Source of the DNA: an uncultured Bacillus sp.
GTDB lineage: Bacteria > Bacillota > Bacilli > ZCTH02-B2
Direction: 5' to 3'
Assembly (NCBI GenBank): GCA_947085265.1
Contig: CAMTVR010000012.1
Location: 178,180 to 242,179 of the forward strand
DNA: 64,000 nucleotides
Shown: positions 8,632 through 51,857 of the stretch, piece by piece
Layout: each line of letters starts with the position of its first letter
How positions within the stretch are numbered: the first letter of the stretch is position 1
Program-made: the position numbers and the translations under genes
The notes under the pieces: generated by a model
Databases searched by the model: none
Told to the model about the DNA's origin: nothing
The model's input: only the letters and a program-made list of their open reading frames with translations

Positions 8632-8649
8632 GAGGAGCGAGATAGATGT

Positions 8650-8695: not shown

Positions 8696-8761
8696 GACCT
8701 TCTATGCCTTGCCTAAGAATAACAATAGGGATATGATAGATGATTGGAAGGGGAGAACAGG

Positions 8762-12594: not shown

Positions 12595-12615
12595 ACCGTT
12601 TGCATACGGTCAAAG

Positions 12616-12648
12616 AACAGCCGTTCCCGTGAACGGCTGTTCTTTTTC
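12616..12648 (+). terminator. rho-independent terminator after korB
   Basis: AACAGCCGTTC-CCGT-GAACGGCTGTT perfect 11-bp stem followed by CTTTTTC. Confidence 0.85.
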
Positions 12649-12812
12649 ATTGGTCGACTTTCATTCGCAGATCCAGTATAATGTGTAGTGTTATCTAAAT
12701 GAAAGAAAACCGGAATTCTGCATTGAAAAGGCCTTCAACACATTGGGATTCATCGATCGTTCGTTTTGATAGAACGCAAATAGACGGTTTGAAATAGACG
12801 GTTAAAGAAAGG

Positions 12813-22758: not shown

Positions 22759-22831
22759 AGCAATGTATAGTCCATATAAATTCATTGATATAAATAGAAA
22801 TAAATTGTAAAAACTATAGGAGGAACTATTC

Positions 22832-23095
22832 ATGAAACAGGTTATAAACGTTCAGGACACTTTTTTGAATCAGGTTCGAAAAGAAAATATCCCGGTAACG
22901 GTTTATTTGACCAACGGATATCAATTGAAAGGCTATGTTCGTTCTTTTGATAATTTTACGGTTGTCATCGAATCAGATGGCAAGCAACAGATGATTTATA
23001 AACATGCCATTTCCACATTTCATCCAGCAAGAGCCGTGAATCTTTATCAGTCCCCGGAAGCAAAAGGAACCGAAGAATCACCGCCATCCAATTAA
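22832..23095 (+). CDS. hfq: RNA chaperone Hfq
   Basis: Sm motifs ([38 protein letters not shown]...YKHAISTF); GGAGG RBS. Confidence 0.9.
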
Positions 23096-23189
23096 GCAAC
23101 ACGGAAGCTTGCTTCGTCCGGTTGTATCCGTGCTTGCATTCTTGAGTCATCATGGATGCTGTTTGAAAAGGGAAGGGGTGGAAGGGCTG

Positions 23190-24140: not shown

Positions 24141-24239
24141 GAGTTCCAAAACTTGATGAAGTATCGACGCATCGAATTGGATTTCAAACAAAAAGTTGGA
24201 ATAAAAAAAGTTGGAATAAAATAGGGAGAAATTGCGCCG

Positions 24240-25499: not shown

Positions 25500-25530
25500 A
25501 CAACATTCAACAAACATCACTTTGACAAAC

Positions 25531-26160
25531 TTATTCTTGATACTGCCTGAACAGTCCTATCACTTTACCCAAAATGGTGACATGAGGGAGGCGTATCGGT
25601 TCCATTGCGGGATTTTCCGGTTGCAGGCGAATGTGATCGTGCTCCTTGTAAAATCGTTTGACGGTGGCCTCATGTTCTTCCGTCATGGCCACCACGATCT
25701 CACCGTTGTTGGCCGTATGTTGTTGTCGGACAATCACATAATCCCGATCCTGGATTCCAGCATTGATCATGCTATCTCCACGTACGAGCAGCATAAATAC
25801 AGTTGACTCGTTGGGCGCCATGAATTTGGGAACAGGAAAATAGGTTTCGACATTTTCAATTGCGGTAATGGGCAAGCCTGCGGTCACTTTACCGACAATT
25901 GGAATATGTACCACTTCCGGCTGAGAATCGGCATGACTCATCTCGCGATCGAGGATTTCGATGGCACGAGGTTTGGATGGGTCGCGACGGATATATCCCT
26001 TTTTCTCCAGTTTCGCCAAGTGTCCGTGAACGGTAGAGCTGGATGCCAGGCCGACCGCATCACCGATTTCCCGCACGGAAGGAGGGTATCCTTTTTCACG
26101 GACTTCCTTGACGATAAACTCTAATATGGCTTGTTGACGTTTGGATAGAGGTTCCATCAA
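25531..26160 (-). CDS. lexA: SOS transcriptional repressor LexA
   Basis: winged-helix N-terminus ([10 protein letters not shown]...[14 protein letters not shown]), S24 peptidase domain with Ala-Gly cleavage site and Ser/Lys dyad. Confidence 0.9.
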
Positions 26161-27764: not shown

Positions 27765-28619
27765 TTATCCATGCCCATAACCGTAACCCGGGTGTGTGCG
27801 GATCCACTCGCGCAATTCTGCGAGTGCTTCCTGATACGGCGTGACGGCGTAGGTGAAATCGGAGCGGGTGTTGACCAAGCTCTTGTCGGCGGTGATCCTG
27901 TCGCAGGGGCGTATCGTGATGTCTTCACGGCCAAACGCCTCCTTGAGCCAAAGCAGCAGCTGATACTTGGATATTTTCCCAGGCGTGGCCAGATGCACCA
28001 ATCCGGCAATCACCGGTTTTCGCAGCACCCAGTCGATCGCCTTGGCTAATTCCAGCGTGGTCACGCCGTTCCAGAATGCCCTGCGGTAGCCCTGCACTAC
28101 CCCTTTCTGATTCATGAACCAGTGGAACAAGCCGATGCCGTCCTTGAGTTCAGGACCGATGATTGAGGTGCGTATGGTGAGGTGGCCGCCATACGTCACC
28201 TCTCCCAAGCTTTTGGTCTTCGCGTAAGCGGTCATGCCGTCGGTGACATCTTCTTCCGTGTATTCTCCCCGCTTGCCGGAAAAGACGCAGTCCGTGCTGA
28301 TGTGGATCAGCCGAAAACCCATTTTTTCGCCAAGACGGGCCACCTGGTGGGGAAACAAGCTGTTGACGCAAATTGCGTCGAAGAGACGGCGGGAAGCCTC
28401 TTCGTTGAGAAGGCCTGTCGCATTGATCACGACATCGGGACGGACGAGGCGGATCGCCTGGGCCACTGCCGCTTGATCGGTGACGTCCAAACTGATTGCA
28501 TGAGGATCATCTGATTTTTCCCGCACGGTATGCCACACGTCATGCCGGCCGCATTCCGACAGGTGCGCCCGAATGACGTGCCCGGCCATGCCGTTGCCGC
28601 CAAACACCAGGACCCTCAA
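27765..28619 (-). CDS. RmlD-type SDR reductase; FnlB/Cap5F-like candidate (UDP-2-acetamido-2,6-dideoxy-L-hexose pathway reductase)
   Basis: RmlD substrate-binding-domain family; TTG start at 28619 overlaps the upstream stop as TTGA with GAGAGGGGGA RBS; the 60 upstream codons of the ORF track overlap the previous gene and are rejected. Confidence 0.7.
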   Translation of the reverse strand: MRVLVFGGNGMAGHVIRAHLSECGRHDVWHTVREKSDDPHAISLDVTDQAAVAQAIRLVRPDVVINATGLLNEEASRRLFDAICVNSLFPHQVARLGEKMGFRLIHISTDCVFSGKRGEYTEEDVTDGMTAYAKTKSLGEVTYGGHLTIRTSIIGPELKDGIGLFHWFMNQKGVVQGYRRAFWNGVTTLELAKAIDWVLRKPVIAGLVHLATPGKISKYQLLLWLKEAFGREDITIRPCDRITADKSLVNTRSDFTYAVTPYQEALAELREWIRTHPGYGYGHG

Positions 28620-30691
28620 TCGAGAAATCCCCCTCTCTTCAGCATGTGTGCGATTTGCTCGTGTGTCATCAAAGATGACTGGGAGGTATACTCGCGAAAT
28701 GGCACAGGCTGTAGGGACCCGTATTGCCGGACAAGCGCCGGAGACGGATGTTCGGGCAGGACGATAAAGTACTGCTCCCCATAGCAATACGTGCGCGTCG
28801 TTTCGTAGCGGGAAACGAGCACCTCGTGCAGCTTCTCACCGGGACGGATGCCAATTACCTGGATGGGCACCGGTGCGATGGCCAGGTGTTCCCGCATGAC
28901 GATGGCCAGATCATGGATGTTGCATGCGTTCATTTTCATCACAAACGTCTCTCCCCCGATCGACACTTCGGCGGCCTTCAGCAGCAGTTCGATCGCTTCG
29001 GGCAGGGTGAGGAAAAAACGGGTCATGTCTTTGGAGGTGAGCGGAATCGGATTGCCTGCCAGGATCTGTTCGCGAAAAAGCGGGACGACACTGCCGTTGG
29101 TGCCCAGCACGTTTCCTCCCCGGACGCAGACGAAACGTGTCTTTTCACTAAGATTGTTGGCGCGGATCACCAGCCGTTCGCCCAGCCCCTTGGTCATGCC
29201 GTAAACGTTGACCGGTTCGACCGCTTTGTCGGTGGATACGTCGATCACCTTGTGAACCCCTTGGGCGATGCTGGCCCGGATGACGTTTTCGGTTCCCATG
29301 ACGTTGGTCTTGAGCGCCTCTGCCGGCTGATTCTCGCAGATCGGAACATGTTTCAACGCGGCCAAGTGAAAGACGTAATCCACGCCCGCGCACGCATCCC
29401 AAACGGCCTGGCAATCCCGTACATCCCCGATACGGAACTTGAGCGAGGGATGGTTGTCAAAAACCCGCTGCATCTGGACCTGGGCGTATTCGTTGCGGGA
29501 AAAGATGCGGATTTCTTTCGGGCGTTTCGCCAAAAGCCTGCGGGTCAGTTCCCGTCCCCATGAGCCGGTCCCGCCGGTTACCAGAATGGTTCGTCCTTCA
29601 AACATGGCGGAGCCCCCCCCCAATATGAAACGGACCACTTTCATCGATACGTTGGGGTCCTTGTACCCTTCGGGGCACTCCCAAGAACGGGAGGTGCCGA
29701 TCATCAGGCGAACACAGGCGGCGATTCGTTCCGGTTCCAGACCGGATACCGTATTGCTGCCGCATAATACCGTTTCGGGCCGCTCCGTCGATTGCCGGAT
29801 GGTGACCGCCGGGACGCCAAGGAGACAGCTCTCCTCTTGCACGGTGCCGCTGTCCGTCACGACGCAGCGGGCCTTTTTTTGCAGTTGGACAAAATCAAAA
29901 AATCCGAACGGCTCACACCACTTGATCAGCGGATGGGACGGATCGAGGGAGAACTGTCGGAAACGGGAACGGGTGCGCGGATGGACACTGCAGACAATCG
30001 GCAGCCCCGTCTGTTCAGCGACCAGCTTCAGGCCAGTGAGGATGTTGCGCAGCCTCCGTTCATTGTCGACGTTTTCGGCGCGGTGTGCCGTCACCAGGAT
30101 GTACTGGTTTGCGGCGAGACCGAGTCGCTCCACGATGTCGCTTCGCTCGATCCGTCCCCGATAGTGCTCCAGAACTTCATAGATGGGGTTGCCGCACACC
30201 CAGACGCGCTGCGGATCGATCCCTTCCCGCAGGAGATTTTCCCGCGCGACGGGTGTATACGGCAGGTTGTAGGAGGAGATGGCATCGATGATCTTGCGGT
30301 TGATTTCCTCCGGCACGGTCATATCGTAGCAGCGGTTTCCCGCTTCCATATGGTACACCGGCATTCCCAAACGCTCGGCCAGCACGGCGCAAAGCGCGCT
30401 GTTGGTGTCGCCGAGCACCAGGATGCGGTCGGGGCGTTCTGCGAGCATCAGCTGTTCCACTTGAGCGAATATCGTACCAACCTGTCTTCCAAATGAATGG
30501 GCATTTATTTGCAGTTTGTGGTCGGGTTGGCGAATGCCCAATTCCTCAAAAAAGATTTCGTTCAACAAGCGTTCGTAATTTTGTCCTGTATGAACCAACA
30601 CGTGGCGTGAGGCGAGGAGGTCAAGACGGGGTATGATCCGGCTCAGGCGGATCAATTCGGGACGTGTTCCGAGGATTGTCATCACTTTCAC
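28616..30691 (-). CDS. bifunctional fusion: N-terminal UDP-N-acetylglucosamine 2-epimerase (WecB/FnlC-like) fused to C-terminal UDP-GlcNAc 4,6-dehydratase (Polysacc_synt_2; Cap5E/FnlA/PseB-like)
   Basis: N-terminal domain MTILGTRPE...HMEAGNR...PEEINR is WecB-like; C-terminal domain LVTGGTGSWG...YGMTKGLGE...GTNGSVVP closely resembles Cap5E/FnlA; the two domains share a continuous reading frame; start GTG 30691 or ATG 30682 downstream of AAAGGAGG. Confidence 0.8.
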   Translation of the reverse strand: MKVMTILGTRPELIRLSRIIPRLDLLASRHVLVHTGQNYERLLNEIFFEELGIRQPDHKLQINAHSFGRQVGTIFAQVEQLMLAERPDRILVLGDTNSALCAVLAERLGMPVYHMEAGNRCYDMTVPEEINRKIIDAISSYNLPYTPVARENLLREGIDPQRVWVCGNPIYEVLEHYRGRIERSDIVERLGLAANQYILVTAHRAENVDNERRLRNILTGLKLVAEQTGLPIVCSVHPRTRSRFRQFSLDPSHPLIKWCEPFGFFDFVQLQKKARCVVTDSGTVQEESCLLGVPAVTIRQSTERPETVLCGSNTVSGLEPERIAACVRLMIGTSRSWECPEGYKDPNVSMKVVRFILGGGSAMFEGRTILVTGGTGSWGRELTRRLLAKRPKEIRIFSRNEYAQVQMQRVFDNHPSLKFRIGDVRDCQAVWDACAGVDYVFHLAALKHVPICENQPAEALKTNVMGTENVIRASIAQGVHKVIDVSTDKAVEPVNVYGMTKGLGERLVIRANNLSEKTRFVCVRGGNVLGTNGSVVPLFREQILAGNPIPLTSKDMTRFFLTLPEAIELLLKAAEVSIGGETFVMKMNACNIHDLAIVMREHLAIAPVPIQVIGIRPGEKLHEVLVSRYETTRTYCYGEQYFIVLPEHPSPALVRQYGSLQPVPFREYTSQSSLMTHEQIAHMLKRGGFLD

Positions 30692-30744
30692 ATCCAATGA
30701 GCCTCCTTTCCTCACTTTCCTTCCTCCAAAGTTCAAGACTGAGC

Positions 30745-31458
30745 TCATTCCGCTTCTTTCGGGAGCAAGAGGTGTTTCCACTTGGGAAATTCCTCATTGG
30801 CCCTCGTGAAATCCGCCGGCTGGCCGATGTCCATCCAGAACGCATCATTTTCATAATGCCGAACCGTCTCTCCTTTTTCCAAAAGCGCTTGGATCAGATC
30901 TGGGATGTCGAAAAACTGCCGTTCCGGGATGTACTCAAGAATGAGTGGATCCATCATGTAGATCCCCATACTGACATGGGCATTGCGCAGCGGTTTCTCG
31001 ATGAATCGGATGACACGTTCTCCCTCCGTCTCCAGCACACCAAGGTTGATGGGCACGTGTTTTTGTTGCGATGCGACGGTCATGATGCTGCGTCCGGACG
31101 TGTGAAACTCCCAGAACGCACGAAACGACAATGTGGTCAGTATATCGCAGTTGATGAGCAAAAACGGCTCGGACAAGTGGGTGAGCGTCTTAAGCGGTCC
31201 TGCCGTCCCGCGGGGTTCCGTTTCCACCTGATAGGCAATCGAGACGCTCCACGCACTCCCGTCGCCAAAATAGCTCTGGATCAAGGAAGCCCGATAACCG
31301 CATGCCATTGTGATGTTGGTGAAACCGTGGTATTGGAGCTGTTTCACGATGATTTCCAGAATCGGCTGATCTCCTACCGGCAAAAGTCCTTTGGGCAGCA
31401 CCTTGGTGTACGGCATCATGCGTACGCCTCTGCCCCCGGTCATGATGACAGCATCCAC
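30745..31458 (-). CDS. sugar-1-phosphate nucleotidyltransferase (NTP_transferase; short RmlA/RfbF/HddC-like)
   Basis: MTGGRGVRMMPYTKVLPKGLLPV nucleotidyltransferase signature; GTG start 15 nt after the upstream stop with GAGAGGGGGAA RBS. Confidence 0.8.
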   Translation of the reverse strand: MDAVIMTGGRGVRMMPYTKVLPKGLLPVGDQPILEIIVKQLQYHGFTNITMACGYRASLIQSYFGDGSAWSVSIAYQVETEPRGTAGPLKTLTHLSEPFLLINCDILTTLSFRAFWEFHTSGRSIMTVASQQKHVPINLGVLETEGERVIRFIEKPLRNAHVSMGIYMMDPLILEYIPERQFFDIPDLIQALLEKGETVRHYENDAFWMDIGQPADFTRANEEFPKWKHLLLPKEAE

Positions 31459-32512: not shown

Positions 32513-34494
<1,982 letters not shown>

Positions 34495-35859
34495 TTACCC
34501 TTTTTGTATTCCATTCCGGATCTCTTCCCAGGACAAAGCGAGATGAACCGTATCTTCTTCCGACTGGTTTCCGAATTGCACTTCGATGATGTCCAGATCT
34601 TTGGAAGCTATGACGGCGTGCCTGGCTCCGGCCGGAAGTTCCCATACAGCGCCCGGACAAATGGAGAAAATCCGTCCGTTCAAGACCAATTCCCCCTCTC
34701 CGGCCGCCACGATCCACACCTTGCGGCAATGCGTGTGATACCGATAGCTGAGATGCTTACCCGCGCGGAGATGGATTTTCCGGGTCAATGCTTCATGATT
34801 CTGATCATCCAATACGCGAGACCAGCCCCAGCCCCGTTCCTCATACTTCACGCGTTTGGCAATCGCTGGTGCGGCATTTTTCACGAGGTTGCTCTTGGCT
34901 TTGTCCGCGACCAGGATTCCGTCCGGGCTCGCAGCAACCACCACATCCGAAACGCCAATCGTGACCACAGGAATTTCCAATTCGTTCAGAATGTGCACAT
35001 TCTTGCAGTCCACGCATTTTGCAAACGCTTCGTCTGTTCCGTCCATCTCCTGCGTGATTTCATTCCAGGTGCCCAAATCTTTCCAAAAACCAGAATAAGG
35101 AATCACCACCGCCTGACTGGCGTTTTCAACAATTTCATAATCAAAACTGATTTTTGGCAAATTCCCATATTCCTGCAGCATTTTTTCATAGTCCGTGGGC
35201 CACCCTCTTTTGGCCAATTCTTGGATCACATCACCCAACCGGAAGGCAAAAATGCCGCTGTTCCACAAGGCACATTGCGTGAAAAGCTGGTGCATCTCCC
35301 GCTCCTGCGGTTTTTCCTTAAAATACTGCACTTTTTGGTAGGCGATTTCAGAAGCCAGGTCCGTCTGTTCCCCGGAGGGAACAATGTAGCCGTATTGGGA
35401 TGACGGGTAGGACGGCGCTATGCCAATCAGGGCAAGTGCCGCGCCCGAGTGATGAATCACTTCCTCCAATTGTTTCATCTTCACAAAAAACGCATCGTCC
35501 GCATGAAAATCGACAGGCATCACTGTGATTACATCCGAACAATCGACACGCTGTTTTGAATAAAAATACGTTGCCGCCAATGCGATTGCCGGGAATGTAT
35601 CCCGTGGTTCAGGCTCAATGATCAGTGGCACTTCAGTTCCCAACTGATCGTGCACGAGATCGACATGCGTTTGCGACGTTGCAATGTACGCATCACTGGA
35701 CGGCAGATGTTCCTCCAGTTTTCTCCAGGTCCGTTGAACCATGGACTCTTTTTCGCCTTTTGGATGATGGAATATTTTTAAAAACGGTTTGGAACGCAGA
35801 TGATGGGAGAATGGCCACAACCTTTTTCCTGATCCCCCCGCAAGGAGCACCAATTTCAT
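34495..35859 (-). CDS. manC: mannose-1-phosphate guanylyltransferase / mannose-6-phosphate isomerase (type II PMI-GMP, ManC/XanB)
   Basis: LAGGSGKRLWP nucleotidyltransferase N-terminus plus C-terminal cupin (PMI) domain; ATG 35859 with GAGGTG RBS. Confidence 0.85.
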   Translation of the reverse strand: MKLVLLAGGSGKRLWPFSHHLRSKPFLKIFHHPKGEKESMVQRTWRKLEEHLPSSDAYIATSQTHVDLVHDQLGTEVPLIIEPEPRDTFPAIALAATYFYSKQRVDCSDVITVMPVDFHADDAFFVKMKQLEEVIHHSGAALALIGIAPSYPSSQYGYIVPSGEQTDLASEIAYQKVQYFKEKPQEREMHQLFTQCALWNSGIFAFRLGDVIQELAKRGWPTDYEKMLQEYGNLPKISFDYEIVENASQAVVIPYSGFWKDLGTWNEITQEMDGTDEAFAKCVDCKNVHILNELEIPVVTIGVSDVVVAASPDGILVADKAKSNLVKNAAPAIAKRVKYEERGWGWSRVLDDQNHEALTRKIHLRAGKHLSYRYHTHCRKVWIVAAGEGELVLNGRIFSICPGAVWELPAGARHAVIASKDLDIIEVQFGNQSEEDTVHLALSWEEIRNGIQKG

Positions 35860-36075
35860 TGTCCGCACCTCTATCCCCTTCGCTTTTACGACCATCATAT
35901 GTACAGGTGTGAAAAGGTGATCTATCCCACCCCGCAAAAATGGTCGTCTTTCCCGAGATCTCGTGCGGCATGTGCAACCGTCCAATCCAAACAAGCGGCA
36001 GGATCATATGGTAAAAGTGTTCACGCGCCAAGTTGATATGGCAAGAACGTCAAAAAACCTGGGAAGGGGATGAAC

Positions 36076-36921
36076 ATGGGCGGTTTATGGACAGACGAGG
36101 AGATCCTTGAAGCCATCCATCAGCGCAGATGGTATCACAAAATACCCATTCGTCCCGGCATCACAACCCCCGGCAATGATTACGACAGATTGTGGGACAT
36201 TATCCGTGCCGCCAGGAAACATATTGACTACACAGGAAAAAGAGTGCTCGACATCGCCAGTTTTGATGGCTTGTGGGCGTTTGAAGCCGAGCGGCTGGGG
36301 GCGAGCTTTGTCGTTGCCACGGATTGCTATCAGCCGGCTTTTGCGAATTTCGCGTTATGCAAGGAGATCCTAAAAAGCAATGTCGTTCCACTATACAACG
36401 TCTCCCCGTATTCCTTGTGGGACGGACTGAAAGTGATTCTGATGGATGACGAATCGACACCGCTTCCTTATCCGCAGCAAGTTCGCCACAACTTGTTCGA
36501 TATTGTTCAGCACCTCGGCCTGTTATATCACGTGCGGGATCCTCTGATGACTTTGTCTCAATCACGGAGCGTCATCAAGACAGGAGGGTTCTTGCTTCTG
36601 GAAACAGCGGCCATTTTGAACCCTGGAGAATCATTGATGGTGTACAACGGTCCGCCGGAGAACAAAAAACGCATTTACCTGGATGTGACCACGTGGTGGA
36701 TCCCGACCATCCAGTGTGTGATGGAAATGCTGAAAACCACACTGTTTGAGCCAATGCCGGAAACCATTCACATTCTTGAAGATCAGCCAATCAGCGGGTA
36801 TCCGCTCGGACGTATGGCCGTCGTTGCAAAAGCCGTTCCCGGGCATGCGATTGCCCAAGATACCTACAAAGAGCTGTTGCGCACCTTCCGCAATCCCGGC
36901 CTGGTCCCGGAATACCTGTAA
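36076..36921 (+). CDS. DUF1698/CmoB-like class I methyltransferase-fold protein
   Basis: block similarity to CmoB (WYH.I.....TPG; GKRVLD...; ...LYH...PL; LLETxxI), but the glycine-rich SAM loop is degenerate (DIASFDG instead of GxGxG); ATG at 36070 or 36076 after GGGAAGGGG. Confidence 0.55.
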   Translation: MGGLWTDEEILEAIHQRRWYHKIPIRPGITTPGNDYDRLWDIIRAARKHIDYTGKRVLDIASFDGLWAFEAERLGASFVVATDCYQPAFANFALCKEILKSNVVPLYNVSPYSLWDGLKVILMDDESTPLPYPQQVRHNLFDIVQHLGLLYHVRDPLMTLSQSRSVIKTGGFLLLETAAILNPGESLMVYNGPPENKKRIYLDVTTWWIPTIQCVMEMLKTTLFEPMPETIHILEDQPISGYPLGRMAVVAKAVPGHAIAQDTYKELLRTFRNPGLVPEYL

Positions 36922-36976: not shown

Positions 36977-38188
36977 TTGGCAAGCGAGGTGTGGCCTTTG
37001 TCTGCTCCTTTGGTTAGCGTCATTACCACATCGTATCACCGCGCCCGGTTTATCCGGGAGACGATCGAAAGCGTTTTGCAGCAGGATTATCCTTTCATTG
37101 AACACATCGTGGTGGACGGAGGATCGACGGACGGCACGGTGGAGATCCTGCAACAATACAGCCAACGCGGCGACCGTTTTCGTTTCGTCTCCGAACCGGA
37201 CCGTGGGCAGTCGCACGCGGTGAACAAGGGACTGGCCATGGCGCGGGGCGAGATCATCGGGTGGCTGAATTCGGACGACACTTATGTGCCGGGAGCCGTA
37301 AAAAAAGCGGTGCAGGCGTTTCAGCGCCATCCGGACTGGGCGATGATCCACGGCAGGGCATTTTTCATCGATGAGAACGGTCATGGACAAGGGCCAGTCG
37401 GTTATACCGCCCCCATCGACTTCGACAAATTGTTCCACGGATGTTTTGTCTCCCATCCGACAGTTTTTATCAGGAAAAGCGTGTTCCAACAAATCGGGGG
37501 AGCGGATGAAACCCTCAAATTTTGCTTGGATTACGATGTGTGGATTCGGATCGCCAGGAACCACGTCATCGGGTTTATCGACGATTTTCTCGCCAATTAC
37601 AGAGTTCATCGCGGCTCACAGACAAACCGCGAATGGAAAACAGTCGGCATTCCCGAGATCTTGAAAATCATCGCAAGGCATTACGGCACGGTTTCAAAAA
37701 CCTGGATGTCGATCTATTTAAGTGAAATGGAGGATAGAAACGTTTTTCAGATTTTGCGTCGCTTTCAAGCTGCCTCGTTGTTCGGCAATCCGCCGAAAAT
37801 CACAAGGATGAACAGGCACGAAGATTTCAGTGTTCCTCCCTTGTTCCGGATCACATTGGCATCGGATCCTGGATTCCCGATGAAAATGCTGCTTGTCAAA
37901 GGCAGGATGCTGGCTTCACGAATGTATGATGCGCACAAGTTCACGTGCACCGTACTGGTAAATGGACAAACGGTCAGGAATTACGACATCACAACATCCC
38001 CGTTCGTTTTTGAAATCCCGCTTCCCCCGGATCGCGCGGTCAATCAAGTGGACATTCTTTCCTCAAAGTTCTCCATGGCGGACCACTCCGACGCGAGAAA
38101 GCGGAGCTTTGTTGCGGAGGAGGTGATCCCCCTCTCCCGCACCGAAGCCGAGATTTATCGCACGCATCTTAAACCTCTCCTGGTTTAA
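36977..38188 (+). CDS. family 2 glycosyltransferase (GT-A fold) with a roughly 180-aa C-terminal domain of unknown function; paralog A
   Basis: SVITTSY...DGGSTDGT...NSDD motifs; highly similar to the next gene. Confidence 0.8.
   Translation: MASEVWPLSAPLVSVITTSYHRARFIRETIESVLQQDYPFIEHIVVDGGSTDGTVEILQQYSQRGDRFRFVSEPDRGQSHAVNKGLAMARGEIIGWLNSDDTYVPGAVKKAVQAFQRHPDWAMIHGRAFFIDENGHGQGPVGYTAPIDFDKLFHGCFVSHPTVFIRKSVFQQIGGADETLKFCLDYDVWIRIARNHVIGFIDDFLANYRVHRGSQTNREWKTVGIPEILKIIARHYGTVSKTWMSIYLSEMEDRNVFQILRRFQAASLFGNPPKITRMNRHEDFSVPPLFRITLASDPGFPMKMLLVKGRMLASRMYDAHKFTCTVLVNGQTVRNYDITTSPFVFEIPLPPDRAVNQVDILSSKFSMADHSDARKRSFVAEEVIPLSRTEAEIYRTHLKPLLV
37045..37297 (+). repeat. direct repeat copy 1 (5' region of GT2 paralog A); near-identical to 38351-38603
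   Basis: long stretches of identical DNA (for example gcgttttgcagcaggattatcctttcattgaacacatcgtgg...ggaggatcgacggacggcacggtgga) shared between the two tandem genes. Confidence 0.8.
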
Positions 38189-38299
38189 TGCGGTGAACAC
38201 GCGTTTTTCGGGAAGCGACGAATGGGAACGCGCGCGCCAGCCGGCGCCATTGGAGGTGCCCGCTTAACCCACTAAACTGAAAGCGATGGAGTGATCGAG

Positions 38300-39616
38300 A
38301 TGGCCCATCTTCCGCTGGTGAGCATCATCACGCCCAGCTACAACCGAAGCCGTTTTATCCGGGAGACGGTCGTGAGCGTTTTGCAGCAGGATTATCCTTT
38401 TATTGAACACATCGTGGTCGACGGAGGATCGACGGACGGCACGGTGGAAATTCTGCAACAATACAGCCAACACGGCGACAGGTTTCGCTATGTCTCGGAA
38501 CCGGACCGCGGCCAGTCGCACGCGATCAACAAGGGGCTGGCCATGTCTCGGGGCGAGATCATCGGGTGGCTGAATTCGGACGATACGTATCTGCCAGGCG
38601 CCATCCGCAAGGCCGTGCGCGCGCTGCTGCAGCATCCCCACTGGGCGATGGTGCATGGCTTGGCTTACGTGACGGACGAGCGGAGCCAGCGGCGGTCCGC
38701 TTATTCGGTGGAACCGGTGGATTACCAGAAATTGTTTCATGGTTGCCGCATCTGCCAGCCCACCGCCTTTATTCGCAAGGATGTCTTTCAACAGCTGGGG
38801 GGAGTGGATGAGTCACTGCACTTTTGCATGGATTATGATCTCTGGATCCGGATCGCCAAACGGCACACCATCGGGTTTCTCGATGAATATTTGGCCACTG
38901 CCAGAGTCCACCCGTCAGCCAAAAGCGTGACGCATTGGAAATCCATCGGCCTTCCCGAGATCCTGCAGACCATTTCCAAGCATTACGGAACCGTCTCCAA
39001 TGATTGGCTGCAATTGTTCCTGTCGCAACACGCGGATAAAGACATTTTCTGGTTGTTAAACCGCTTCAAGGATTATTCAGTTTTTGGAATTCCGCCAAAA
39101 ATCAGCAACATAAACCGATATGCCGATTTCTGGGTTCCCGCCCGATTGGTCATGACCGTGGAGGCGGATCCGGGGTTTCCCTTGCACGCCTTGCTGCTCA
39201 AGGGGAGGGTTCCCCTGTCCGCCTTCCCGTCCGCCCACAGGAACAAATATCGGCTCACTGTTCTTTTAAACCGTAAAATCACCGGCACCTTTTTCATTGA
39301 CCAGGAATCCTTCACTCTGGAAGTCCCTCTTCATACTTCCCAGTCATCCAACCACATTGAAATGATGTCATCCCACTTCATCCCTTCCGGGCATCCCCTG
39401 AACCCTCATCAGACGCCGCTCAGCTTTCTCGCCGACGACGTCATTCCTCTTTCCCGCAAGGAAGCGGAATTTTACCGCGTCTATCAGCGCTCTCCATACC
39501 TGGCTGCAGCTTGGATCTGGCAAAACAGGCAGCCTGTTCCTTGCCCGCCATCGCTTCAAGAAAATCCCTTTCGGAGCGGAACTGGAAGCACCCACGACGG
39601 GGAGGACACTGGATGA
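38300..39616 (+). CDS. family 2 glycosyltransferase with divergent C-terminal extension; paralog B
   Basis: N-terminal roughly 100 aa about 90% identical to paralog A, then diverging; ATG 38300 after GGAGTG RBS. Confidence 0.8.
   Translation: MAHLPLVSIITPSYNRSRFIRETVVSVLQQDYPFIEHIVVDGGSTDGTVEILQQYSQHGDRFRYVSEPDRGQSHAINKGLAMSRGEIIGWLNSDDTYLPGAIRKAVRALLQHPHWAMVHGLAYVTDERSQRRSAYSVEPVDYQKLFHGCRICQPTAFIRKDVFQQLGGVDESLHFCMDYDLWIRIAKRHTIGFLDEYLATARVHPSAKSVTHWKSIGLPEILQTISKHYGTVSNDWLQLFLSQHADKDIFWLLNRFKDYSVFGIPPKISNINRYADFWVPARLVMTVEADPGFPLHALLLKGRVPLSAFPSAHRNKYRLTVLLNRKITGTFFIDQESFTLEVPLHTSQSSNHIEMMSSHFIPSGHPLNPHQTPLSFLADDVIPLSRKEAEFYRVYQRSPYLAAAWIWQNRQPVPCPPSLQENPFRSGTGSTHDGEDTG
38351..38603 (+). 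repeat. direct repeat copy 2 (5' region of GT2 paralog B)
   Basis: see copy 1. Confidence 0.8.
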
Positions 39617-40629
39617 AAATTGTCATTCCAATGGGCTACCTGCACCTGGGCGGCGGGTGCAAAGTGCTGGTTGAGACCGCAAATGCGCTGGCCGCGCGCG
39701 GGCACGAGGTGGAACTGTGCCCGTTGCGGGTGCTGACGCAGATGTACCCTGTTCGCTGCAAACTGACCCCCATTCCCGTGCTGTCGAGGGAGTACATCCC
39801 TTACGGGGACATTGTTTTGCCCAACTTTTACACCACGTTTCGCCCCGCTTATTCCGCCTGGCCCGCCCAGACCGTGCGGCTCAGTCTGGGGTTTGAACCG
39901 TACTGGGTGCCCGACCCGAAGGAGGCGCTGTGGACGTACCGGCAAGGCGTGCCGATCCTCTCCATCTCCCGCTGGCTGGATGAGCAGATCCGCAAGCATG
40001 CGGGGCAACGCAGCACAGTGGTCAATCCGGGTGTCGATCTGACCGTATTCCACCCCGGTCCGAAATTGAAGACGTTCCGAACAGATAAACCAAAAGTCAT
40101 CATGTACATCGCCCGCGATCCCGGCGCGGGGTATCAATTGAAAGGGTTTCACGATTTCGTCGCCAGTCTGCAAATATTGAAAAACTGGTACCCTGATTCC
40201 TTTGTCGTGAACCTCGTGTGCCCCGAAAAGAAACTCGGCGTGCCGGGCATTCCGCATCAGGTTTATTCGCCGGCAAGCGACGCGGAAATGGCGCAACTGT
40301 ATCGGGAGGCCGATATGTTTGTCTCGTCGTCCTGGTTTGAAGGGTACTCCCTTCCCCCGCTGGAAGCAATGGCCTGCGGAACACCGGTGGCGACCACCAA
40401 TTCCGGCGGCGTGCTGGACTACTGCACCCATCTGCAAAACGGCTACATCGTGCCGCCGCGCAACCCGGTATTGCTCGCCGAGGGGATGCACGCCGTGCTC
40501 ACCAATGGTACCCTGTACAACAAGCTGGTGATCGGGGGGCTGCAGACAGCGAAGCGGTTTTCCAAAGACCGTTTTGAACGAGAAATTGTCACTGCCCTGG
40601 AAGCCATTTTTGAGGCGCGAATGCGCTGA
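39613..40629 (+). CDS. family 4 glycosyltransferase (GT-B, Glycos_transf_1)
   Basis: EGYSLPPLEAMACGTPV (EX7E motif); ATG 39613 overlaps the previous stop as ATGA. Confidence 0.8.
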   Translation: MKIVIPMGYLHLGGGCKVLVETANALAARGHEVELCPLRVLTQMYPVRCKLTPIPVLSREYIPYGDIVLPNFYTTFRPAYSAWPAQTVRLSLGFEPYWVPDPKEALWTYRQGVPILSISRWLDEQIRKHAGQRSTVVNPGVDLTVFHPGPKLKTFRTDKPKVIMYIARDPGAGYQLKGFHDFVASLQILKNWYPDSFVVNLVCPEKKLGVPGIPHQVYSPASDAEMAQLYREADMFVSSSWFEGYSLPPLEAMACGTPVATTNSGGVLDYCTHLQNGYIVPPRNPVLLAEGMHAVLTNGTLYNKLVIGGLQTAKRFSKDRFEREIVTALEAIFEARMR

Positions 40630-40686
40630 TTCCACAGGATCGGGAAATCCTTGAGAACTGCGCTCATGGGAGGGAGGGATTTTTCT

Positions 40687-41388
40687 GTGCGCATTGCACC
40701 GAAGGTTTCGGTGGTCATCCCGTTTTACAACTGCGCGTACGTGAATCAAGCCATTGAAAGCGCCCTGAACCAGAGTTACCCCCACATTGAGGTGATTGTC
40801 GTCAACGACGGTTCGACTCGGCACGTCGAGAAAATTACGCCGTACGTTCACCGGATAAGGTACATCGAAAAGGCCAACGGAGGCACGGCCAGCGCCCTGA
40901 ACGCAGGAATCCGCAACGCTTCCGGAACGTATTTCGCCTGGCTGAGTTCGGACGATTTTTACGACAGGCACAAAATTGCCAGCCAGATAGCGTTCATGCA
41001 ATCCGCCAGTGCCTTCGCCAGCCACACCGCTTTCTACTTCATAGACGCACACAATCGTATACGCCGCCCCACTCCCTACACCGTTTTTGGAAACCGGATC
41101 GATTTTTTTGAACAAATGAAACATGGTTGCCTGATCAACGGTTCCACCGTCATGCTCAGCATGGACGTGTTCGACCACGCAGGACTGTTCGACGAATCGC
41201 TCCGCTATGCGCATGATTACGAATTCTGGCTGCGCGTTCTGATGAGATACGACTTCCTTTACATGCCGCAACCTCTACTCTACTACCGCGTCCACAGTGA
41301 GATGGGATCAGGCAAATTCGCGCCGCAGCTGGCTAGAGAAACGCTGCTCGTCCGGCAAAAATACCAAAACATGGTTATTCATCCGTAA
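40687..41388 (+). CDS. family 2 glycosyltransferase
   Basis: VSVVIPFYNCAYVNQAIESALNQSYPHIEVIVVNDGS...LSSDD; GTG 40687 after GGGAGGGAGGG RBS (the ORF track start at 40651 is also possible). Confidence 0.75.
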   Translation: MRIAPKVSVVIPFYNCAYVNQAIESALNQSYPHIEVIVVNDGSTRHVEKITPYVHRIRYIEKANGGTASALNAGIRNASGTYFAWLSSDDFYDRHKIASQIAFMQSASAFASHTAFYFIDAHNRIRRPTPYTVFGNRIDFFEQMKHGCLINGSTVMLSMDVFDHAGLFDESLRYAHDYEFWLRVLMRYDFLYMPQPLLYYRVHSEMGSGKFAPQLARETLLVRQKYQNMVIHP

Positions 41389-41411
41389 GGCGCCTACAGG
41401 CGTCACTATCA

Positions 41412-41759
41412 TTACTCCAAGTATAGCTTTGTCTCCACGACGGCCGCCGCGCCGGCCGCGGCCAGCACGACCAGGATGGGAAAAGCGGCCGGCACCAAGA
41501 AGTACAAGGCAACGATCGCTGTGGAAGACCAGATGCCGACACACCAGTGACAGCTGAGGAGTATCCCTAGCCAGCGGCGAAAGCCTGAACCCTTCAGGTG
41601 GATGTGCCGTACCACCTGGCCGGAAGGGTCGGCTTCATAGGAAACGCTGAAAAACGGTTCACGCAAAAACGACATGATGTCGTCATAAACAATCAAATGT
41701 GTCAAACGAAAGCTGGCCAATACGATAATCACGAGATGGAGCCACGTCATCTCAAACAT
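41412..41759 (-). CDS. DUF1360-family small membrane protein
   Basis: about 115 aa, two to three TM helices, HLIVYDDI motif typical of Bacillus DUF1360 proteins; ATG 41759 with GAGGAAG RBS. Confidence 0.5.
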   Translation of the reverse strand: MFEMTWLHLVIIVLASFRLTHLIVYDDIMSFLREPFFSVSYEADPSGQVVRHIHLKGSGFRRWLGILLSCHWCVGIWSSTAIVALYFLVPAAFPILVVLAAAGAAAVVETKLYLE

Positions 41760-41862
41760 CAGTTCCACTTCCTCGTTAAGATTTGTTCCTGATTCACGCG
41801 CGATGCAAAAGCCGGACATGCCTGAAAAATTCACAGGCCTGTGCGCGCCGTTTTTTGTTTCG

Positions 41863-43140
41863 TCAGCACGACACCGCGATCCGATTGTTGGAGGAAAATT
41901 GCACCTGCTGTTCGCGGAAAAAGATGAATCCTTCGATCGTCACGCTGTTGCCGGATTCCGGTGTCATCACGGTCATCTGGAAGTTTTGGAAAGGATGGAC
42001 TTCCTTTGGCGCGATACGCACCGGCTGAACCGGAGCGATCCAGTACTCCCCCCGCTCCTTTGCCTTCTCAAACCAGTCTTCCTCCAGAAATCTCCAGCCC
42101 CTTACACCCATAGGACTTTGCACGCCGAGCGTCTCCACCATGTTGGCCGGCAAAATCTGCCCGCCCAGTTTGACGCTGCCAGGGGGATCGGCGCGCAAGC
42201 AAACGACCGGGTTGATCAATGCTTCCGTTCCTGTATTTTTGACATATAGGTTTCCGAAGATCAAAAACGGCTTACCCTCGATGTCGGAGCGGAGCACGGT
42301 GTAATCAAAAAACACCTCGGCAGCCAACTCTCCCTGTTCCGGCAGCCGGCTTGCTGCTTCGTCGATCGGCTCGCCGACCGGCTTCTCCCAGGCACTGGGC
42401 AACCTCCGTGTTTCCCTCTCCCCCTTCTCGAGCATCGGGGGTGTTGCCGCCAACATCCGCAAAACAGCGGGAGTCAGACAGGAGAGTGGCGAGATTTGCT
42501 GTTCTGTCAGCAAGTAGCGAAGGATGCCGGACGCGAAAAAGAAGGCTATCCGCTCTGCCCACTCCTTCCAGGCCGTTTGCGCCATGCTGGTCGGAAGCTG
42601 GCAGCAAACCTCGACAAATGCGTGGAACGGCTGGCACCCGCGCCGCCATTCGGTTGCGCACGGTATCCCCGCGCTCTTCCATTCTGTCTCCAGACAGTGC
42701 ACCAATGCTTGGTTGCACCGGCTTTCATGCTGAATGATAGTCATTCGGGGCGGAAGCCCGATGTCTGCCTTTTCGATGGTAAATTGTACGCATACATCCT
42801 TCTGTTCCGGCCAGTCCAACCGGTTCGGCGACAGAGCGACGCTCACCCCAGCGGCGGTGAGAAATCGTTCCGTCAGTGCCAAAATGTCCCGTTCATGTGG
42901 ATGGAAATCGGTTGCGGCGGGAACCTGTCGGTGCCTATCCTCCAGCACACACATTTTCCCTTTGAGCCCCGGCGCGAGAACAATCCTGTTTTCTTTTGGC
43001 TCCCACTGAAAGTGAAACCCGCTTTCTTGACAAAACAGACGAAAGGCAGGCAGTGATGTGAAAGGGATCGTCCCACACGTTTGACCAGCGTAAAAAACCG
43101 CAACATCATCCATCCCAAATCCCCCTTCTTTATCGGTCAT
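41863..43140 (-). CDS. hypothetical protein (425 aa, Cys-containing central region, no recognisable domain)
   Basis: long ORF with GAGGGAGGGG RBS 7 nt before the ATG at 43140; co-directional with the DUF1360 gene. Confidence 0.55.
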   Translation of the reverse strand: MTDKEGGFGMDDVAVFYAGQTCGTIPFTSLPAFRLFCQESGFHFQWEPKENRIVLAPGLKGKMCVLEDRHRQVPAATDFHPHERDILALTERFLTAAGVSVALSPNRLDWPEQKDVCVQFTIEKADIGLPPRMTIIQHESRCNQALVHCLETEWKSAGIPCATEWRRGCQPFHAFVEVCCQLPTSMAQTAWKEWAERIAFFFASGILRYLLTEQQISPLSCLTPAVLRMLAATPPMLEKGERETRRLPSAWEKPVGEPIDEAASRLPEQGELAAEVFFDYTVLRSDIEGKPFLIFGNLYVKNTGTEALINPVVCLRADPPGSVKLGGQILPANMVETLGVQSPMGVRGWRFLEEDWFEKAKERGEYWIAPVQPVRIAPKEVHPFQNFQMTVMTPESGNSVTIEGFIFFREQQVQFSSNNRIAVSC

Positions 43141-43250
43141 TCCGCATCCCCTCCCTCTTCCCCTCTTGCTTCATAGGCTGCTACGTGTTCATTGTATGTA
43201 CGCCCATCAGAAAGAGTGCCGGTCGGTGCGAATGCCCGCGGCAAACGGGT

Positions 43251-43277
43251 ACCTGCGCTCGGTTTTGGCATAGGATG
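43251..43277 (+). promoter_or_regulatory. possible mother-cell sigma-K-like promoter (AC-16nt-CATAGGATG) upstream of the ppGalNAc-T-like gene
   Basis: matches AC-N16/17-CATANNNTA except for the final base; by sequence only. Confidence 0.25.
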
Positions 43278-43299
43278 TCAGGAAGGAAGGAGTGAGCCA

Positions 43300-44181
43300 A
43301 TGTCTGACGGACACATGCCTTTTGTTTCCTTAATCATTCCGGCCAAAAACGAAGGGAATAACGTGCGTGCGACCGTTGAATCGGCATTACGCGTAAAAAC
43401 CCACCACCCTTTTGAGATCATCATCGTGGATGATGGTTCTACAGACGGATGCTGCGCGTTTTTGGCATCCGGAGAAAACGAACAGATCAAATTAATCACG
43501 ACTCAGGGAATTGGGGCTGCCCCTGCCAGAAACCTGGGTGCTGAGCATTCACTGGGAGAATACCTCATCTTTTGCGACGCCCACTTGTTCTTCCAGGACT
43601 ATTGGATGGATCAGTTGCTGGGACTGATCCGGACGGGACAAGCGAACGCCGTGTCCCCCGGCATCGCTTCGACAAACCGGCCGAATCTCGTCGGGTACGG
43701 CCAGACACTGAACCGCATGTTGGGCGTACAGTGGAACCGGCAAATATCCGTTCCCGCACCTACGGCGATTCTGCCGGGCGGATGTTTGGCCATGACGAGA
43801 GACGTCTTCTTCGATGTGGGCGGATTTGATCGGGGATTTCAGGTTTGGGGGTTTGAAGATGTGGAGATCTCGCTCAAGCTGTGGCTATTTGGCTACCAGT
43901 GCTACGTGCAGCCGGCAGTCAAGGTGTTCCATCTGTTTCGCGAATCTCACCCGTACCGCGTGACATTCGACCACGTATACTACAACATGCTTCGGATGGC
44001 CTACAGCCATTTTAACGAATCTCGGATCGCCTCTTGCCGCAGCTTGATTCACCACGCAGATCCAGCCCGGATCGAGGAAGCTGTATTGGCTGGTGGCGTG
44101 CTGGAACAGCGGAAACGCTACTTCGCGCGCCGGAAGTACGACGACGAATGGTTCATGCGCCGGTTCGGAATCCCGTTCTGA
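43300..44181 (+). CDS. GT-A glycosyltransferase resembling the catalytic domain of polypeptide N-acetylgalactosaminyltransferases (GT27-like / GT2; no lectin domain)
   Basis: block-wise match to the ppGalNAc-T catalytic domain: EIIIVDDGS, FCDAH (DxH), Gal/GalNAc-T motif WGFEDVEISLKLWLFGYQ (compare WGGENLEISFRVWQCGG), and HLFR (compare HVFR). Confidence 0.7.
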   Translation: MSDGHMPFVSLIIPAKNEGNNVRATVESALRVKTHHPFEIIIVDDGSTDGCCAFLASGENEQIKLITTQGIGAAPARNLGAEHSLGEYLIFCDAHLFFQDYWMDQLLGLIRTGQANAVSPGIASTNRPNLVGYGQTLNRMLGVQWNRQISVPAPTAILPGGCLAMTRDVFFDVGGFDRGFQVWGFEDVEISLKLWLFGYQCYVQPAVKVFHLFRESHPYRVTFDHVYYNMLRMAYSHFNESRIASCRSLIHHADPARIEEAVLAGGVLEQRKRYFARRKYDDEWFMRRFGIPF

Positions 44182-44311
44182 GAACACTGCGGATGGGAAA
44201 ATATACCTGGAATATTCACCTAAAAAATAGGCGTTTGTTTACAAGCAAAATGCCCTCCTCAACATAGTATGTATTGCGTAAAACACCACCTAGGAAAGGG
44301 AGGGTTCATAA

Positions 44312-45571
44312 TTGGTAAGGCAAATCAGACCCATCAAGGGTTTTCAAGTTCCGACGCCGACGCCGACCGCACCCGCGCCGATTCCGAACAATCTGCAAGA
44401 AGAATGCATCCGCGTTCAAAAGGTGTACGACTGGGTCGTGACCGCGAACCGGGATCAAAACAAAGTTCAAATTCCTAGCGACTGTCTGGCTCTTGTCAAC
44501 GAAGCCATCCAGGCCGGGCAAAATATCACTGTTCAATGTGTGGAGCCGGTCATCCCTTCACCATTCCCGATCATTCCGAAACCGCAGCCGACGCAGGGAC
44601 TCGACTTCTCCTGCCGGATCATCAGCATTCGCCGGGAAAACATCGTTATCGGGGGCAACGTCGTCCGGGTCGGCATTGTCCGCTTTCTCTTCAGTGCTAC
44701 GCTGCTGATCCGTGTTTTTGCCGACGGCACGCTGTTATGCGAATTTCCAGCCACTGTCCAGTTCGACGATGAAATCGTGCTCTGCCTGCCAGAACCGCTC
44801 GACGAAGACAACATCCTCTGCCGGATTACCGCGGTTGAGTGCACGCCGCTGGAGCCCATCCTTGGCGGCCAAATTCTGATTGACGTGGTCATTTGCAAAG
44901 AAATCCAGGTGGAAGCGGAAGTGAAGCTGGAGGTATTGGCAAAATTTTGCCAGCCTCGCCCAGCCGACATACCCGTACCGACACCCACGCCGCCAGCATT
45001 CCACTGCCCACCAGTCATCTTCCCGGCACAATGCCCAGAGATCTTCCCGCGTCAAAACTGCGACTGCCAGGCAACTGCCAACGTCATTCTCACCAATTCG
45101 ACCGTGCTGTTTGACGGCGTAGCGGAAGTCGGCACGGAACAATTAATAGCCGAGATCTGCCCGAACTGCAATCCGGGAGACAGTACCTTCTCTTATACCT
45201 TTGTCGACACGATCTCACCCACACCGACACCCACGCCTACCGACGAAGTCCCTGGCGATTTCAGCTTCGTCTTCACACCGGTACAAATCAGTACACCTGT
45301 TTGCTCAGCGATCCCTGGCGGCGGCCTGCAGGCCGTGGTCACCGGTACAGGAACCCGCACATTCACCGCAACCGGCACACAGGATACCCTTGCCTACGAG
45401 CTAACGCTGCGTGAACTGCCCGGCCTCACGGACGAATACCGCCTCATCCTGCGCAACGCGCTGGGTGCCATCGTCTTCGACACCGGGTTCAAGACAGTTC
45501 CGGACGCCAACCTCATCGTCCAAGACTGCATCACCTTCCCGGATGTCATTCCGGCGCCATCTGTGCCCTAA
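44312..45571 (+). CDS. cysteine-rich three-module protein with Thr-Pro linkers (TPTPT), no signal peptide; candidate glycoprotein substrate / spore-surface structural protein
   Basis: TTG start 7 nt after GGAAAGGGAGGG RBS; three TP-rich linkers (VPTPTPTAPAPIP, IPVPTPTPP, ISPTPTPTPTDE) separate Cys-rich modules; own terminator downstream. Confidence 0.65.
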   Translation: MVRQIRPIKGFQVPTPTPTAPAPIPNNLQEECIRVQKVYDWVVTANRDQNKVQIPSDCLALVNEAIQAGQNITVQCVEPVIPSPFPIIPKPQPTQGLDFSCRIISIRRENIVIGGNVVRVGIVRFLFSATLLIRVFADGTLLCEFPATVQFDDEIVLCLPEPLDEDNILCRITAVECTPLEPILGGQILIDVVICKEIQVEAEVKLEVLAKFCQPRPADIPVPTPTPPAFHCPPVIFPAQCPEIFPRQNCDCQATANVILTNSTVLFDGVAEVGTEQLIAEICPNCNPGDSTFSYTFVDTISPTPTPTPTDEVPGDFSFVFTPVQISTPVCSAIPGGGLQAVVTGTGTRTFTATGTQDTLAYELTLRELPGLTDEYRLILRNALGAIVFDTGFKTVPDANLIVQDCITFPDVIPAPSVP

Positions 45572-45594
45572 TCCAAATCACGCGCACAAACATG

Positions 45595-45630
45595 CGGGAG
45601 AACAACAGATTCTCCCGTATTTTCATTTCT
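45595..45630 (+). terminator. rho-independent terminator after the Cys-rich protein gene
   Basis: CGGGAGA-loop-TCTCCCG stem followed by TATTTTCATTTCT. Confidence 0.7.
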
Positions 45631-45741
45631 GTGTACCAAGAAACAAGAAAAGAGAAGGTTTACCCGTTGTCTTTATGCACATTTTCCTCCCTGTTACATA
45701 TGTCTATAGGGAAAAGCACACGGAATGGAGGAAAATATGCG

Positions 45742-51724: not shown

Positions 51725-51857
51725 GAACCAGATGCCTCCTGTACAGATACTCAATTCGATTTAATGATAACTGAACCACGTCGAAAACAAAAGAGACACC
51801 GTTTTGGCGTCTCTATTAGCGCTTTTCTTTTCATGTTTTGGCCTTTTGAACACCACT

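Follow-up and report, generated by a model that had tools for sequence, protein, structure and literature searches.

A DUF1698/CmoB-like protein with an aromatic motif I loop, a candidate sugar O-methyltransferase in a glycan and spore-coat locus of an uncultured Bacillus sp.

Introduction

What does a methyltransferase-like protein with an unusual cofactor loop do at the head of a glycosyltransferase operon? The question is raised by a 64,000-nucleotide stretch of DNA from an uncultured Bacillus sp. (GenBank assembly GCA_947085265.1, contig CAMTVR010000012.1, positions 178,180 to 242,179), referred to here as the window. The gene in question, for which we use the working name X, is the coding sequence 36076..36921 on the plus strand. 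A preliminary description of this DNA had given the X protein a CmoB/DUF1698-like methyltransferase fold with a degenerate S-adenosylmethionine (SAM)-binding loop, and had offered two roles for it: a sugar or glycoprotein O-methyltransferase, perhaps with a non-canonical cofactor such as carboxy-SAM (Cx-SAM), or an inactive scaffold.

We find that X is an uncharacterised member of the class I SAM-dependent methyltransferases and belongs to the DUF1698/CmoB-like superfamily. Its fold, family placement, conservation pattern and gene context were observed or computed directly. Based on these, we consider it on balance probable that X depends on SAM and acts, most likely, as a sugar O-methyltransferase, which in this organism would serve a glycan of the spore surface.

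Fold and family of X

The Pfam profile PF08003 (DUF1698, or Methyltransf_9) matches X with 41.8 bits, above its gathering threshold of 23.8, over profile positions 108-260 of 315, and precomputed PF08003 matches are listed for nearly all X homologues. The NCBIfam models of CmoB also recognise X (E values of 4e-16 and 2e-14), at profile positions ~108-269 only, and CmoB chains are the best PDB sequence matches of both X and its family profile. When the family profile was aligned with E. coli CmoB in hhalign, the probability was 97% with the core alone aligned (residues 109-270), and tblastn of X against CmoB gave an E value of 1e-6 over residues 120-267. The AlphaFold2 model of X, created from 26 homologues, has a mean predicted local distance difference test (pLDDT) score of 91.5 and a predicted template modelling (pTM) score of 0.91, and predicts the seven-stranded Rossmann-like fold of class I SAM-dependent methyltransferases. 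In a fold search the nearest solved structure was CmoB. The nearest fold other than CmoB was a sugar O-methyltransferase, and many small-molecule methyltransferases followed CmoB among the structural neighbours. The proposed fold is therefore borne out, and the profile searches, which might have placed X in a non-methyltransferase family, returned PF08003 and the CmoB models instead.

Given this similarity, X could be a true CmoB orthologue that modifies tRNA or other RNA as a mo5U/cmo5U34 synthase. The CmoB models are the best family matches of X, and JGI labels its relatives 'tRNA (mo5U34)-methyltransferase'. We nevertheless regard orthology with CmoB as extremely improbable. X scores 58.8 bits with TIGR00452 and 53.4 bits with NF011650, against equivalog cutoffs of 275 and 209. 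Identity to CmoB (PDB 4QNU/4QNX, 4P7C, 7CT8; PF08003, TIGR00452) is ~20%, and only ~55 residues stand ahead of motif I in X compared with ~125 in CmoB, so that alignments begin at CmoB residue ~85-120. The N-terminal domain of CmoB comprises a helix-turn-helix for dimerisation and a basic tRNA-binding platform (PMC4482062). X lacks these first ~85-100 residues and keeps a short conserved remnant of the N-terminal motif, together with the Rossmann core and the C-terminal strand. It also differs from CmoB in an insertion at residues ~110-139, in a motif I that reads A-S-F-D-G instead of G-C-G-x-G, and in its location in glycan loci without cmoA nearby; every locus that we read had a glycan biosynthesis context. 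Moreover, Bacilli make mo5U with the unrelated enzyme TrmR (PMC6158493). The assignment of X as CmoB proper was accordingly rejected on its sub-cutoff scores and missing N-terminal tRNA-binding region. Thousands of proteins of this clade sit in glycan loci and are without the tRNA-binding part, and their database name 'tRNA (mo5U34)-methyltransferase' is very probably mistaken.

The family search with X returned 444 matches, and 2805 cluster representatives at E<=1e-3. Members were found in Bacillota, Cyanobacteria, Nitrospirota, Verrucomicrobiota, Desulfobacterota, Proteobacteria and archaea of the genus Nitrosotalea, and this broad taxonomic spread points to purifying selection on a working enzyme. 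As read from the aligned sequences, the signature of the X subfamily is WYHK...TPG...VLD-h-[A/G]-S-[F/W/Y]-D-G-MWAFEAE...LGLLYH-RDP...R...RNPG.

The motif I loop

The loop that had been called degenerate does read VLDIASFDG, encoded by GTG CTC GAC ATC GCC AGT TTT GAT GGC (36244-36270). Compared with the canonical class I motif I, hh(D/E)hGxGxG, it retains only the Asp and the last Gly. To judge whether this reflects decay, we followed the loop in three conservation sets: 121 close homologues, 120 members of a sister clade and 109 representatives of clusters formed at 50% identity.

The variant loop proved to be conserved at every depth. VLD[IL][AG]SFDGMWAFEAE hardly varies among 26 aligned homologues (45-68% identity) that come from Brevibacillus, cyanobacteria, Desulfonatronum, Verrucomicrobia and the archaeal genus Nitrosotalea, and 80-odd genomic relatives, down to 27% identity, always have VLD-h-[G/A]-[A/S/T/C]-[W/F/M/Y]-[D/N]-G. 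In the close set, position 61 is Ala in 96 proteins and Gly in 25; position 63 is F96/W10/Y7/M4/L2/V1; position 64 is Asp in 113 and Glu in 8; and Gly65 is present in all 121. The sister clade invariably has G-A-W-D-G, and the cluster representatives have mostly W, M, F or R at position 63, never G. Judging from these alignments, the bulky residue that replaces the second motif I glycine is ancestral to the whole clade and under selection, and the loop is a conserved family hallmark rather than a product of decay.

A similar loop occurs in a well-studied enzyme. Rat and human catechol O-methyltransferase (COMT) have E64-L-G66-A-Y68-C-G70 at the equivalent position (sequence and numbering checked on the PDB chains). 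In COMT, Tyr68 belongs to the active site, and its exchange for alanine raises the barrier to methyl transfer (PMC5001633). COMT and X thus have in common a G/A-x-aromatic-x-G pattern in the SAM loop, and in COMT the aromatic residue promotes methyl transfer. COMT, however, belongs to another class I subfamily (Methyltransf_3) and is Mg2+-dependent, so the analogy concerns one loop and not specific homology. Together with the near-invariance of the loop in all three sets, the COMT parallel speaks against the term 'degenerate'.

The cofactor site and the choice of cofactor

The cofactor contacts of CmoB have been described (PMC4482062). The carbonyls of G130 and M196 bind the amino group and G197 the cofactor backbone, D152 binds the ribose, E182 the adenine N6 and K110 the alpha-carboxylate, and the extra carboxylate of Cx-SAM has K91, Y200 and R315 as ligands. 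By alignment, G130 maps to A61 of X, D152 to D83, M196/G197 to L147/G148 and Y200/H201 to Y151/H152. We equated R246 with R315 because both lie in the final strand and the folds match over the full length, and located the equivalent of K91 by aligning distant members pairwise with E. coli CmoB in tblastn.

The residues D83, G148, Y151, H152 and R246 are present in 121/121 proteins of the close set and in 94-100% of the two distant sets (R246 in 118/120 of the sister clade and 103/109 of the representatives). W19, H21, D59, G65, F141-D142 and E176 are conserved to the same degree, and W19 and H21 are near-invariant across the superfamily, where K22 is variable. This pattern would be expected if the enzyme works, and it speaks against an inactive scaffold.

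A catalytically dead pseudoenzyme that organises the glycosyltransferases would fit the position of X as the first gene of their operon, and two of the three motif I glycines are replaced, at A61 and F63. We consider a scaffold highly improbable. H21, D83, D142, G148, Y151, H152, E176 and R246 are invariant across bacteria and archaea, as are G65 and F141; the loop variant is itself conserved and resembles that of active COMT; and the neighbouring glycosyltransferases differ between phyla, leaving no constant partner to scaffold.

Two cysteines show a narrower distribution. C95 (window 36358-36360) and C214 (36715-36717) occur in 117/121 and 119/121 members of the close subfamily and are Ala in the sister clade, and they appear to form a subfamily-specific pair.

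The site also bears on which cofactor X uses. X might be a Cx-SAM-dependent carboxymethyltransferase that places an O-carboxymethyl group on a glycan sugar, by means of an anion site formed by Y151, R246 and K22 (or H21). Two of the three Cx-SAM carboxylate ligands of CmoB, Y200 and R315, match the invariant Y151 and R246, K22 adjoins the K91-equivalent position and is Lys in 110/121 close homologues, and CmoB is the nearest solved structure. Even so, we think Cx-SAM dependence very unlikely. Y151 and R246 are just as invariant across the superfamily, including clades with T, S, E, N or R after His21, which suggests a general role in the active site and not a mark of Cx-SAM use. In CmoB, the Y200A and R315A variants stay active; K91 alone decides between Cx-SAM and SAM, and K91A turns CmoB into a SAM-dependent methyltransferase. 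This lysine falls opposite the invariant His21 of X in most pairwise alignments and opposite K22 in one only. A tblastn search with E. coli CmoA (E<=0.01) found no match to cmoA in the 64-kb window or around 86 family members, each searched over a locus of ~16 kb; in E. coli, cmoA and cmoB are adjacent. B. subtilis is without cmoA and cmoB (PMC6158493), and cellular Cx-SAM is ~400-fold scarcer than SAM even in E. coli. The earlier suggestion of a non-canonical cofactor therefore has the equivalents of Y200 and R315 in its favour, is weakened by the usual alignment of K91 with His21, and is speculative.

A wider version of this idea is that the whole clade with the WYH motif and aromatic loop has reshaped the CmoB anion pocket (Tyr, Arg, His/Lys) and the SAM loop for some modified cofactor, carboxy-SAM being one example. 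This we hold to be a very long shot; if true, a carboxymethyl or other non-methyl group would be put on surface glycans, a chemistry undescribed so far.

Genomic context and comparison with characterised enzymes

To ask which acceptor a SAM-dependent X would serve, we turned to its neighbours. The gene order manC, X, GT2, DUF1360 gene, gene for a 424-residue protein without family match, GT2 and BMQ_0737-like gene is kept in ~16 Brevibacillus genomes and one metagenome contig, in which X has 59-68% identity. Synteny and identity mark the source of the window as a relative of Brevibacillus. The homologues examined in six phyla lie within glycan loci, as is expected of sugar O-methyltransferases. 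The Desulfonatronum cluster contains NeuB, radical-SAM enzymes, FkbM-GT4 fusions and GT2s; that of Nitrosotalea has many nucleoside diphosphate (NDP)-sugar epimerases/dehydratases, a TylCIII-type C-methyltransferase and CmcI-type methyltransferases; and in Desulfobulbaceae the X homologue lies directly upstream of Wzm, Wzt (with a Wzt_C carbohydrate-binding domain), a sulfotransferase-GT2 and two GT4s. In a census of the 96 open reading frames (ORFs) within two genes of X in 25 loci, made with crude ORF calling and with several high-GC loci left out, the commonest families were GT2 (7/96), GT4 (7/96), other methyltransferases (5-7 per family, among them FkbM and Methyltransf_24/11), sulfotransferases and NDP-sugar enzymes. 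The sugar O-methyltransferase role in the preliminary description therefore fits the context in many phyla.

A SAM-dependent methyltransferase with an acceptor other than a glycan, such as a spore-coat protein side chain, a lipid or a small metabolite, has to be weighed here. A coat protein is encoded nearby in the X locus, and small-molecule methyltransferases are found among the structural neighbours after CmoB. In non-sporulating phyla, however, X still lies amid NDP-sugar enzymes, glycosyltransferases and O-antigen-type ABC transporters, its nearest non-CmoB fold is a sugar O-methyltransferase, and a mycobacterial CmoB-like relative is reported to methylate fucose. We therefore rate a non-glycan acceptor as unlikely.

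The mycobacterial relative deserves a closer look. Among the proteins of M. bovis BCG, BCG_2975c has been reported as the best homologue of CmoB (blastp E value 2e-5, 51% coverage; PMC5114619, discussed in PMC6158493); it is orthologous to Rv2954c. Genetics, mass spectrometry and nuclear magnetic resonance identified the terminal fucose of PGL-tb as the sugar that Rv2954c O-methylates, at position 3 (PMC3594219). Rv2954c/BCG_2975c is likewise a short (241 amino acids), stand-alone methyltransferase with CmoB similarity of the same order as that of X, and its locus also makes the fucose donor, just as X adjoins manC, gmd and fcl. It differs in a motif I described as near canonical, beginning at residue 45, and in an acceptor that is a glycolipid. 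As an analogy, Rv2954c is a suggestive precedent for X, linked to it through the published CmoB likeness of BCG_2975c.

Two further comparisons help to place X. The N-terminal domain of EvdMO1 is the sugar O-methyltransferase of everninomicin (PDB 5T38/5T39, with S-adenosylhomocysteine and D-fucose); its identity to X is 18%, it shares neither a WYH motif nor a C-terminal Arg strand with X as far as tested, and it works in a natural-product pathway. The sister clade, DUF1698 proteins with 'WYH[T/S]IDLG...VLDIGAWDG' (>7,600 database proteins) and TIGR04290, is uncharacterised like X. It has W19, H21, D59, G65, D83, FD, G148, Y151, H152, E176, the WW motif and R246 in common with X, and differs in overall identity (27-35%), in a motif I fixed as G-A-W-D-G, in T/S at position 22 and in being without the C95/C214 pair, N108, N191 and the C-terminal RNPG motif of the X subfamily.

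Several observations concern the relatives themselves. Some (P0242, P0245, P0246, P0253, P0307-P0339; L035, L047, L063, L067, L069, L082) are fused to N- or C-terminal extras, giving proteins of 380-1200 amino acids; such proteins probably modify glycans with several domains, and the acceptor might be deduced from the domains to which the X-like part is joined. Paralogous pairs of X-family genes occur within a few kb of each other (L005:8001-8903 and 12503-13219; L030:5305-6147 and 8001-8843) or adjacent (L077, L082), which would fit methylation of one glycan at several positions, like that by the three fucose methyltransferases of PGL-tb. In an otherwise syntenic locus of an uncultured Brevibacillus (L056:8001-8600), the X homologue matches query residues 1-185 only and the next GT2 begins ~450 bp earlier than in other genomes; this homologue may be an internal deletion or a pseudogene.

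The X locus in the window

The features of X and its locus are collected in Table 1. The open frame of X runs from 36070 to 36921 (+; 283 amino acids) and offers an in-frame ATG at 36070 and a second at 36076. The ATG at 36076 is the better start on account of the spacing of the putative ribosome-binding site and the length of the identical database protein P0001, which also has 281 residues. A scan of the plus strand upstream of X for sigma-70 promoters gave nothing above chance. The sequence CATATGGTA at window 36003-36013 (CATA-N3-TA), ~60 nt upstream of X, has the look of a sigma-K-like -10 element; no properly spaced -35 'AC' was seen for it.

Table 1. Features of X and of the genes around it, with positions in the window
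Feature	Position	Strand	Remarks
gmd	32513-33526	-	GDP-fucose route
fcl-like GDP-sugar epimerase/reductase	33523-34479	-	GDP-fucose route
manC (mannose-1-phosphate guanylyltransferase)	34495..35994	-	Divergent from X; likely true start ATG 35859
Ribosome-binding site GGGAAGGGG	36061..36069	+	Purine-rich; 6 nt before ATG 36076; read from the sequence
X	36076..36921	+	281-aa DUF1698/CmoB-like class I methyltransferase
X, W19-Y20-H21-K22 motif	36130..36141	+	Homologous to CmoB P-W89-R90-K91
X, motif I variant VLDIASFDG, aa 57-65	36244..36270	+	A61 = CmoB G130, F63 = G132, G65 = G134
X, D83	36322..36324	+	Acidic residue ending strand 2, as in class I enzymes; = CmoB D152, ribose hydroxyl ligand; invariant
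X, FDIVQHLGLLYH, aa 141-152	36496..36531	+	= CmoB F190-D191...M196-G197-V-L-Y200-H201; G148, Y151, H152 invariant
X, R246	36811..36813	+	Last strand; GRMAVVAKA vs CmoB KR315AVLIARK
GT2	36977-38188	+	Soluble glycosyltransferase downstream of X
GT2	38291-39616	+	Soluble glycosyltransferase downstream of X
GT4	~39613-40629	+	Soluble glycosyltransferase downstream of X
GT2	40651-41388	+	Soluble glycosyltransferase downstream of X
DUF1360 protein	41412..41834	-	Syntenic in all Brevibacillus loci
424-aa protein	41863..43140	-	No family match; syntenic in Brevibacillus loci
GT2 with Glyco_transf_7C region	43192..44181	+	
BMQ_0737-family morphogenetic (outer) spore coat protein	44312..45571	+	419 aa, acidic, Pro/Thr-rich
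635-aa E/K/Q-rich coiled-coil protein	After the coat protein gene, within 36977-47499		

As had been described, X heads a plus-strand glycosyltransferase operon and is divergent from manC. Genes for GDP-mannose and GDP-fucose adjoin it. FnlA/B/C-like genes lie upstream of manC, fcl and gmd. Among these, in the region 27765-30781 (-), a 720-residue fusion protein joins a UDP-GlcNAc 2-epimerase (Epimerase_2) to a CapD/FnlA-type 4,6-dehydratase (Polysacc_synt_2) and adjoins an RmlD-like reductase; fusion and reductase together look like a fused FnlC-FnlA plus FnlB pathway to UDP-6-deoxy-L-HexNAc.

The coat protein scores 103.7 bits with NCBIfam NF052457 ('BMQ_0737 family morphogenetic spore coat protein'; cutoff 71). 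A statement in PMC4656864, citing Manetsberger 2014, places BMQ_0737 of B. megaterium in the outermost spore layers. The coat protein in the window is PTPTPT-rich and a possible candidate target of O-glycosylation. X, the five glycosyltransferases and the ORFs without a family have no membrane-spanning hydrophobic segment, the coat protein has one weak hydrophobic stretch, and no flippase, polymerase or ABC transporter was found in the locus. The simplest reading is that this locus glycosylates the spore surface from the cytoplasm of the mother cell and that X supplies the methyltransferase.

Outside the locus, the flanks at window 21805-26160 and 49706-51754 contain miaA, a SpoVK-like AAA+ protein gene, a methionine gamma-lyase gene, lexA and tkt, and are a Bacillales-type chromosomal backbone into which a glycan/spore-coat island is inserted. 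An Rfam scan of the whole window found no RNA family.

A proposed mechanism

Taking the preferred reading of X as a SAM-dependent sugar O-methyltransferase, we propose the following working model. X would be an active, cytoplasmic enzyme that holds SAM as CmoB does, with the methionine moiety held by the backbone of A61 and L147/G148, the ribose by D83 and the adenine by N108 or a nearby residue. F63 may pack behind the sulfonium, like Tyr68 in COMT, and H21, Y151, H152 and R246 would line the acceptor side. One of the histidines is the likely general base, which would deprotonate a sugar hydroxyl for in-line SN2 methyl transfer. The acceptor would most likely be a sugar of the glycan, plausibly a 6-deoxyhexose such as fucose. 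The soluble glycosyltransferases co-transcribed with X would assemble the glycan itself, in the cytoplasm of the mother cell, on an outer spore-coat protein or on a polysaccharide.

Several points weigh against this proposal. With two of the three canonical motif I glycines replaced, at A61 and F63, affinity for SAM is not to be assumed. The orientation of F63 and the nearness of H21, K22 and R246 to the cofactor are inferred from the CmoB alignment, and the kept equivalents of the carboxylate-binding Tyr and Arg of CmoB would also be compatible with an anionic cofactor or substrate. The acceptor could alternatively be a nucleotide-sugar, a lipid-linked or protein-linked glycan, or a non-sugar molecule. 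The census gave X no constant single partner, even GT2 and GT4 reaching the proportions stated above only, and we found no characterised member of the X subfamily (DUF1698, PF08003/Methyltransf_9) in the literature.

Implications

X is unsurprising in kind, as it would be one more sugar methyltransferase family awaiting its substrate. Once hhD-h-[G/A]-x-aromatic-D-G is recognised as a SAM loop that is conserved and resembles that of COMT, however, proteins that carry it need not be written off as inactive. For sporeformers, the locus is a compact candidate system without export genes by which the outermost spore layer, which governs the surface properties of the spore, may be glycosylated and methylated.

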